A stretch of 11,545 nt of DNA from a virus (Duplodnaviria; Heunggongvirae; Uroviricota; Caudoviricetes), in the IMG/VR virus record IMGVR_UViG_2713896785_000013. The stretch is one strand, 5' to 3'. Of this stretch, positions 7,780-8,293 are shown in pieces (positions within the stretch are counted from its first letter, which is position 1; the number at the start of each line of letters is the position of its first letter). Made by a program: the position numbers and the translations under genes. The notes beneath the pieces are model-generated. The model was not told the origin of the DNA. It did no database searches and saw nothing but the letters and a program-made list of their open reading frames with translations.

Positions 7780-8293
7780 GGTTTACCCCTTTGCTGACTG
7801 GTTTAACCTGCGCCCTGACGTGATTTACGTGACGGGCGAATTTCTGCTCCCACTGAATCTGCGTAAACACTTTCCCCTCCGCTGCCCAGTAGTCCCGGAA
7901 GGCGGCAAGTTCAGCAGGTGTAAATTCTGTCTCCGGCAAAGCCATCCCCCACAACGCAGCCCGTCGTCGAAAATCCCGTGACGGATACCAGCTATCGCTC
8001 ATCGGGAATTTTCCGATGGGTTCGCTCAGGCCATACAGGAATACAGGGGGGGCTGCCTGTAACGACAAAACTTCCTGCTCACTGGTCGGAGCACTCTCGC
8101 GTGCGTTATGTGTGGGGTTTAGATCTTTGGGTTCCTTTGGGTTCCTTTGGGTTCCGTGATCCGTTTTTGGGTGTCTTTGATGGAAAATTTGGGTGTCTTT
8201 GGTTATTTTCCATGCAGCTAAGAGTTCTGTTTTTGGGTCTGTTTTGTGCTGAAACATAACCATTTTCGGTACTGTTTTTATTAACAGCACCAA
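7568..8293 (-). CDS. Replication initiator O-like, C-terminal portion (frame differs from the N-terminal portion)
   Basis: Long ORF beginning inside the iteron region; C-terminal segment contains ...FTPAELAAFRDYWAAEGKVFTQIQWEQKFARHV.... Overlaps the N-terminal ORF across 8106-8293. Confidence 0.5.
   Translation of the reverse strand: MVLLIKTVPKMVMFQHKTDPKTELLAAWKITKDTQIFHQRHPKTDHGTQRNPKEPKDLNPTHNARESAPTSEQEVLSLQAAPPVFLYGLSEPIGKFPMSDSWYPSRDFRRRAALWGMALPETEFTPAELAAFRDYWAAEGKVFTQIQWEQKFARHVNHVRAQVKPVSKGVNHAAAPGGTASRAVQEIRAAREQWERENGFISDGNGLEAVGTHGGGLFEPLDPEERGRTFEALDCTDWRDD

Follow-up and report, generated by a model that had tools for sequence, protein, structure and literature searches.

Probable inactivation of a lambdoid prophage replication initiator by gain of a 10-bp unit at a tandem repeat within the gene

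Results

The initiator gene is read in two frames that part at a tandem array

The 11,545-nucleotide stretch analyzed here over its whole length (IMG/VR record IMGVR_UViG_2713896785_000013, classified in the Caudoviricetes; hereafter the window) contains a phage replication module on the minus strand, in which a replication initiator gene lies directly upstream of a gene for a lambda P-like helicase loader and is broken into two overlapping open reading frames (ORFs) (Table 1). The ORF listing gives 8106..8693 (195 codons, from an upstream TTG) for the N-terminal part and 7568..8293 (241 codons) for the C-terminal part, the overlap being 8106-8293, exactly where the initial annotation had two O-like ORFs overlapping across a set of repeats. 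The start at 8693 given there for the N-terminal ORF has to be moved: the TTG at 8693 is merely the start of the ORF listing, and the biological start is instead the ATG at 8618-8616, which is also the start chosen by the Prokaryotic Genome Annotation Pipeline (PGAP) and from which 8109-8618 translates to 170 aa. The N-terminal ORF comprises a helix-turn-helix region and ends in ...SRNPKEPKGTQRSKPHT followed by its stop, and the C-terminal ORF contains ...RNPKEPKDLNPTHNARESAPTSEQE... followed by a DnaT-like domain. Codon starts fall at 2 (mod 3) in the N-terminal ORF and at 1 (mod 3) in the C-terminal ORF; the frames differ by +1, so that loss of either 1 nt or 10 nt fuses both ORFs.

The two frames part at a short tandem repeat. 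Tandem Repeats Finder places a single array here, at 8125-8155 (period 10, 3.1 copies, 100% matches, consensus CTTTGGGTTC), in agreement with the three tandem 10-bp copies first noted by the model reader; its coding-strand units, GGAACCCAAA, span 8155-8146, 8145-8136 and 8135-8126. A perfect 30-nt tandem is not due to chance. Translation from the ATG at 8618 is native through K161, continues out of frame as GTQRSKPHT and terminates at a TAA (8108-8106). Residues 162-346, including the DnaT-like domain (197-267), are lost from the 170-aa product.

Relatives carry one unit fewer and an intact gene

The 1201 nt spanning the gene (7500-8700) agree at every position (100% identity) with the chromosome of E. 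coli 2013C-3264 (NZ_CP027544.1; assembly GCF_003019155.1), a strain isolated from human stool in the USA, and the window outside 7500-8700 corresponds to the same chromosome apart from three N-masked stretches. Over the 300 nt surrounding the array, E. coli UTAK-1 and the phage record Stx2_14040 / PPompW_14040 match the window throughout but have one GGAACCCAAA unit fewer, and in both the initiator gene is a single ORF of 346 codons. This is the outcome that had been predicted for removal of one unit (a single ORF of 340-365 codons), and the two-ORF arrangement is not shared by these relatives.

The distribution of alleles was surveyed with short array-spanning queries carrying three, one or two units, each of which matched 907 of 5426 complete E. 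coli genomes. The two-unit allele, with the gene intact, was found in 881 genomes (799 exact, 82 with single-nucleotide polymorphisms, SNPs). PGAP annotates the gene as split in each of the other classes: a one-unit allele in 26 genomes (as the only copy in 25), a three-unit allele in a single genome, the source of the window, and a 22-bp deletion in a single genome, O55:H7 USDA5905. Alleles with four or more units were absent among the matches listed from the 907 genomes and from 80 IMG/VR loci; a four-unit allele would have outranked the two-unit rows in the three-unit query, and none did. The repeat-collapse assembly error that had been proposed as an alternative origin of the split runs in the wrong direction, the window having more units than normal, and collapse from an in-frame five-unit array was rejected on the same finding that nothing exceeds three units among those matches and loci. 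The array query matches one place only in the 2013C-3264 genome, and there is therefore no second copy of the array and flanking initiator to supply the same initiator type in trans.

The rarer alleles point to repeated breakage of this short segment. Three one-unit genomes were examined in full (2013C-3277, UTME-2 and 08_3449). All three have the prophage at ompW, identical protein accessions and a shared DUF1627 frameshift, and they derive from different sequencing projects, with 2013C-3277 present as two separate assemblies; the one-unit allele therefore looks like one real, stably inherited event. The 22-bp deletion in USDA5905 (L092 1135-1300, equivalent to window 8173-8195) lies between the two copies of a 14-bp direct repeat, CAAAGACACCCAAA, situated a short way upstream of the array, and likewise shifts the initiator frame. 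Of the 80 IMG/VR loci, 76 carry two perfect units; two units with a SNP are present in L069, L078 gave no match, and the remaining two loci have three units. One of these, L066 (UViG 2740892234), matches the window without a difference over 3.1 kb. The other, L054 (IMGVR_UViG_2663762939_000017), has its three units at 1951-1993 in a clearly different prophage background. L051, the closest relative of L054, has two units and is otherwise distinguished from it at 1 of 3112 positions; L054 is thus a second, independent three-unit allele. In total at least four independent repeat-mediated frameshifts have occurred in a 60-bp stretch: +10 twice, -10 once and -22 once.

The initiator combines an O-like N-domain with a DnaT-like C-domain

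The C-terminal half of the protein matches Pfam DnaT (PF17948; about 61-61.9 bits against a cut-off of 25; residues 197-267 of the intact protein) and is similar to DnaT C-domain chains in the PDB (6aep, E 2e-19; 4ou6, E 5e-18; and 2ru8; range E 2e-19 to 1e-15). The full-length DnaT model (NCBIfam NF002770) reaches 93.4 bits against a cut-off of 201 and aligns to residues 194-278 only; identity as DnaT (primosomal protein I) was rejected on this score, a DnaT-like domain being merely contained in the protein. In the N-terminal part, residues 1-178 show similarity to four PHROGs called "replication initiation O-like" (E 4e-12 to 1e-7); the full protein hits phrog_1032 ("replication initiation protein", E 9e-91), and relatives at 39-67% identity have precomputed PF13730 assignments. 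A Pfam scan of the initiator returned neither the lambda O C-terminal domain Phg_2220_C (PF09524) nor Pfam's lambda O family, and membership in the lambda O family proper was rejected, the C-domain being DnaT-like and only the N-domain O-like. The term O-like used in the initial annotation therefore fits the N-terminal DNA-binding domain, the role of the gene and its position upstream of a lambda P homologue, and does not fit the C-domain.

The P-like gene begins within the end of the initiator gene, its ATG overlapping that end by 8 nt (ATGACTGA). On the other side, the YdaT-family gene lies directly upstream of the initiator, overlaps its start and belongs to the same rightward early operon. 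Klebsiella relatives have a DnaT-like C-domain after the homologous N-domain. Edwardsiella relatives of the N-domain (58% identity) have the lambda-O-type C-domain and a P gene; in L086 (Edwardsiella piscicida, 2501-4176) a homologous N-domain with the repeat motif described below is joined to Phg_2220_C (PF09524), and the Yersinia relative (L089, Yersinia enterocolitica 2501-4098) has a homologous N-domain and repeat motif with a C-terminal part for which no Pfam family is recorded. In both L086 and L089 the next gene encodes a full-length lambda P homologue of 244-245 aa; the E. coli P-like protein has only 153 aa.

Conserved direct repeats lie in the DNA between the two domains

The array sits at the edge of a larger cluster of repeats. 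For the heptamer ACCCAAA, 8 copies were counted in the window where 1.94 are expected, a number reached in 0 of 200 shuffles, and seven of the eight copies lie at 8126-8327, all on the coding strand. A search of the window for CACCCAAAAACGG with three mismatches gave 7 matches against 4 expected and is uninformative as a whole; the only meaningful matches are the three with at most two mismatches, all at 8161-8328. The copy at 8161..8173 is the best conserved across genera, as (GAT)CCCAAAAACGG(GATC). GC content falls to 0.32-0.35 over 8220-8310 (60-nt windows) against 0.5-0.6 in the flanks.

In the homologues from Klebsiella, Edwardsiella and Yersinia (39-67% identical as proteins) the linker DNA carries (C)ACCCAAAAACGG(G), or the more palindromic GATCCCAAAAACGGGATC, in four to seven copies; these lie at matching positions across genera, and the linker sequence between them has diverged. 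The motif is read in two frames, as ACC-CAA-AAA-CGG (TQKR) at the first copy and as CCC-AAA-AAC-GGN (PKNG) at the others, so that conservation is at the DNA level and not that of a repeated peptide. Its layout is the same as that of the lambda-type iteron ATCCCTCAAAACGAGGGA (PMC7466680). Together these features suggest that the CACCCAAAAACGG direct repeats are probable iterons bound by the N-domain, and that the linker DNA, with these repeats and the A+T-rich stretch, is a probable replication origin inside the gene. Literature searches found no occurrence of the core motif CCCAAAAACGG in a phage context, only unrelated primer sequences, and those on the iterons of lambdoid DnaT-type prophage modules returned background with nothing on the origin of this module.

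The 10-bp units themselves were in part rejected as iterons: the conserved repeat is CACCCAAAAACGG, and the units share only its half-motif ACCCAAA. The description of the gene as split at tandem iterons is thus right in that the split falls at the 10-bp array on the 3' edge of the cluster, and wrong in taking the units for iterons proper. At the array position other genera have an imperfect GGAAYCTAYCA...GGAACCNAAA segment, and the perfect GGAACCCAAA duplication is therefore a feature of the E. coli lineage at this 3' edge.

The array also coincides with a change in sequence affiliation. Nucleotide homology to ydaU of Rac-SA53 starts directly after the array at GATCTAAA (window 8121-8125, GATCT; L005 ~2495), and upstream of the array Rac-SA53 encodes an unrelated N-terminal domain and has no such repeats; the N-domain and the repeats therefore form one exchangeable module. 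The array marks a mosaic junction between an origin-binding module and a DnaT-like/P module. With a 1.2-kb query, coverage was below 80% in 351 of 1258 E. coli records.

The module belongs to a defective prophage at ompW

The element is a defective Qin-like lambdoid prophage at ompW in a Shiga-toxin-type E. coli. By the record annotation its gene order comprises int, xis, exo and dicB; dicA-like and dicC-like regulators and a ydaT-like gene; the initiator, the P-like gene and DUF1627; paa, hokD, DUF968, rusA and Q; and tRNA genes. In NZ_CP027544.1 PGAP labels the initiator as a 170-aa "helix-turn-helix domain-containing protein" and a "DnaT-like ssDNA-binding domain-containing protein" pseudogene with the note "frameshifted". 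The break is therefore already flagged by RefSeq and is of a known kind, ordinary prophage decay. According to Nakamura et al. (PMC8112680), the ompW prophages ("PPompW") all appear to be defective and to have undergone multiple gene inactivations and deletions; the prophage described here is a degraded element and has pseudogenes other than the initiator. The setting and the presence of one unit above the intact allele both favor the earlier proposal of inactivation by repeat expansion in a cryptic prophage.

Several further features of the prophage were recorded. The paa adhesin gene (AcfC family) occupies 4728-5486 (-) and is adjoined by a fimbrial-protein pseudogene at ~5650-6180 (mapped from L001 10521-11054), which is frameshifted and has an internal stop in every relative examined, so that this decay is older and shared. 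Between the PGAP tRNA-Ile and tRNA-Arg genes, at 1017-1092 (-), ARAGORN predicts a tRNA-Lys (anticodon ttt) that is absent from the PGAP annotation and has no match to the Rfam tRNA model at the gathering score; possibly it is a degenerate gene belonging to the tRNA cluster downstream of Q. Rfam matches identify a sok antisense RNA beside hokD (4390-4539 (-), 103.9 bits) and the small RNA STnc100 (1-154 (-), 100.4 bits), the latter cut by the window end. The masked positions of the window are two 50-N runs (1144-1193 and 4297-4346) and a single N (209), where NZ_CP027544.1 has 84, 80 and 1 nt, respectively, and no N. The 50-N runs fall within the PGAP tRNA-Ile gene and within hokD, resemble dataset masks, and shift coordinates relative to NZ_CP027544.1 for positions below 4347.

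Table 1. Features of the replication module, in window coordinates
Feature	Position	Strand	Basis or remark
Replication initiator gene, disrupted (pseudogene)	7568..8618	(-)	Intact orthologue 1041 nt, 346 aa; same as the UTAK-1 and Stx2_14040 gene apart from +10 nt
Still-translatable N-terminal frame	8106..8618	(-)	161 native residues (winged-helix origin-binding domain + linker) + 9 out-of-frame
Premature TAA after frameshift	8106..8108	(-)	Sequence, translation
Tandem array GGAACCCAAA x3	8126..8155	(-)	Intact allele x2; extra unit = +1 frame shift
C-terminal initiator part, out of frame with start	7568..8125	(-)	DnaT-like domain + tail
Iteron-like repeat 1, CACCCAAAAACGG	8316..8328	(-)	Exact; read T-Q-K-R; position and sequence conserved in Klebsiella, Edwardsiella and Yersinia homologues
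Iteron-like repeat, GACCCAAAAACAG	8227..8239	(-)	Read P-K-N
Iteron-like variant repeat, CAAAGACACCCAAA(TTTTCC)	8182..8195	(-)	First of two 14-bp direct repeats, spacing 22 bp
Iteron-like repeat, CACCCAAAAACGG	8161..8173	(-)	Exact; read P-K-N-G; immediately upstream of 10-bp array
A+T-rich stretch inside repeat cluster	8245..8310	.	Two degenerate repeat copies, 8300-8290 and 8270-8260
Lambda P-like helicase loader gene	7114..7575	(-)	Phage_lambda_P PF06992, 60.2 bits (cut-off 26); phrog_109 "P-like helicase loader", E 7e-54
YdaT-family gene	8590..9141	(-)	Pfam YdaT_toxin, 24.8 bits (cut-off 21); PGAP annotation

Discussion

We consider it likely (probability about 0.85) that the region is a replication module whose initiator was made a pseudogene by slipped-strand gain of a unit in a two-unit repeat, the third unit being probably a real mutation. 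The extra unit, the +1 frame change, the premature stop, the intact relatives and the recurrence of such events are demonstrated here, and a sequence of steps would connect them. Slipped-strand mispairing during replication would have added a third GGAACCCAAA unit to the two-unit array, and the ten added bases move translation into the +1 frame and onto the TAA at 8106 after 161 native and 9 foreign residues. The 170-aa product would retain the origin-binding domain and lose the C-domain, which by analogy with lambda O is expected to recruit the P-helicase complex. The P gene would in addition lose any translational coupling to the initiator, because ribosomes would stop ~530 nt upstream of the P start, and the prophage would be left unable to start its own replication. 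The clustering of breaks can be explained without selection, because neither direct-repeat period, 10 or 22, is divisible by three. Since the repeat lies at the edge of the probable origin and not in arbitrary coding sequence, it would be the origin's own repeats that make the gene fragile.

A number of points weigh against this interpretation. The loss of initiator function is deduced from the loss of a domain, and a C-terminal fragment might still arise by internal initiation; the N-terminal Pfam HTH_36 match scores 20.9-22.3 bits, below the cut-off of 25; and the third unit is taken from the assembly consensus. L066 may be the same genome as the window and hence not independent. The assembly may also contain some consensus error, given three differences in homopolymer length from UTAK-1. 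Excluding the three N stretches, which are masks and were not counted as differences, the window and UTAK-1 are separated by 14 substitutions and by four indels, namely the 10-bp unit and three homopolymer extensions in the window (+A near 2783 and +A near 737, both in A-runs, and +GG near 846 in a G-run). The +A near 2783 frameshifts DUF968 (ORFs 2383..2724 and 2705..3439, minus strand), which is intact (1056 nt) in UTAK-1, UTME-2 and 08_3449, and this frameshift could be either a real mutation or a homopolymer consensus error.

These differences bear on the possibility that the strain truly has two units and an intact gene, with the third unit created in long-read assembly or polishing. The three homopolymer differences, one of which breaks DUF968, fall in the same 11.5 kb, and this genome is the only one of 5426 complete E. 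coli genomes with three units. Typical long-read errors, however, are homopolymer indels of 1-2 nt and not the gain of an exact 10-nt unit. The gain of a unit also recurs in the unrelated prophage background of L054, loss of a unit is reproduced in 26 genomes from several laboratories, and USDA5905 has the neighboring 22-bp repeat-mediated deletion; taken together, these three lines demonstrate that such changes truly occur in the region. We therefore regard an artefact as unlikely and retain unit gain by slippage as the explanation.

An extension of that explanation, which we put forward as a long shot, is that the origin repeats act as a built-in breakage point and that the truncated alleles have been kept as a domesticated replication-exclusion factor against phages with the same origin, locking the prophage in place. 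Still less probable is a selected or switchable state, in which the array would serve as a reversible replication switch or a free origin-binding domain would block same-origin phages. The N-domain is intact in all of the at least four independent frameshifting indels within 60 bp, and plasmids with part of the lambda replication region are reported to inhibit phages of the lambda replication type (PMC3349717). Two or three units are nevertheless too few for a high-rate switch, shifted alleles occur in only ~3% of genomes (28/907), mutational bias at direct repeats with periods 10 and 22 explains the clustering, and the host prophages are decaying anyway. Nor does the array behave as a phase-variable contingency locus: it has 1-3 units only, two units in 97%, and a one-unit allele that is stable over 26 genomes and inherited without flickering.

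Equally improbable is that the split gene works as it stands, either as two proteins (an origin binder and a DnaT-like recruiter) or through a programmed +1 frameshift restoring full length: although the break lies within the interdomain linker and so leaves both domains physically intact, and although the second frame has in-frame ATGs at 8263, at 8257 and, a little before the DnaT domain, near 8002, these ATGs are preceded by no Shine-Dalgarno-like sequence as judged by eye, 97% of alleles are a single ORF, so that the two-ORF state is not conserved, and the four different lesions (+10 twice, -10, -22) produce different overlaps and hence no conserved slippery site. In programmed ribosomal frameshifting the two frames and the shift site are conserved among relatives; here the relatives have one ORF.

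The finding as it stands adds one more pseudogene to a decaying prophage. For annotation, it means that the two ORFs are one broken initiator gene and not two genes. The initiator type, an O-like N-domain with a DnaT-like C-domain, is widespread (907/5426 complete E. coli genomes, including O157 Sakai Sp9), and its probable iterons are directly apparent from conservation across genera. Having an origin within it would make a gene prone to repeat-mediated frameshifts, of which four independent events were seen. The ability of a prophage to replicate also bears on mobilization of its cargo, which includes paa here and, in related ompW prophages, effector genes together with a secondary attachment site that Stx2a phages use.

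Comparison with known systems

One of the closest known systems is the O-P module of lambda, in which ori-lambda lies inside the O gene. As in lambda, the initiator gene is immediately followed by a lambda P homologue (PF06992), the N-terminal domain is probably of HTH_36 type (O-like by PHROG matches, with the HTH_36 score below the cut-off), direct repeats composed of a C-tract, an A-tract and a G-tract lie mid-gene beside an A+T-rich stretch, and the N-domain and repeats are exchanged as one mosaic unit. Classical lambda ori-minus mutations are small deletions between iterons. The module here differs in its repeat sequence, in the uneven spacing of the repeats (10-89 bp) and in having the A+T-rich stretch inside the cluster. 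It differs also in its C-domain, which is DnaT-like (PF17948) and not PF09524, lambda O consisting of HTH_36 and Phg_2220_C (Brézellec et al., PMC5509034).

The same two-domain architecture beside a P-derived gene is found in DopC, which with DopE forms a domesticated pair (HTH_36 and a DnaT C-motif beside a P-like gene); DopC is chromosomal and is reported to be without iteron-like sequences (PMC5509034), whereas the initiator described here has such repeats. YdaU ("primosomal protein I") of Rac-SA53, followed by YdaV, is 87% identical over the C-terminal 186 residues and has the downstream P-like gene in common, but its N-terminal domain is a different one and the ACCCAAA repeat cluster is absent. 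Prophage Sp9 of O157 Sakai, whose initiator of this type is the "phage replication protein", has the same array in the intact two-unit form (H193); its O and P genes have been judged functional, and it circularizes spontaneously and is packaged (PMC2669165), whereas the copy in the window is frameshifted. Finally, the lesion resembles the slipped-strand frameshift pseudogenes of other defective prophages, in which gain of a unit whose period is not a multiple of three leads to a frameshift and premature stop, and differs from them in that the repeat lies at the edge of a probable replication origin.

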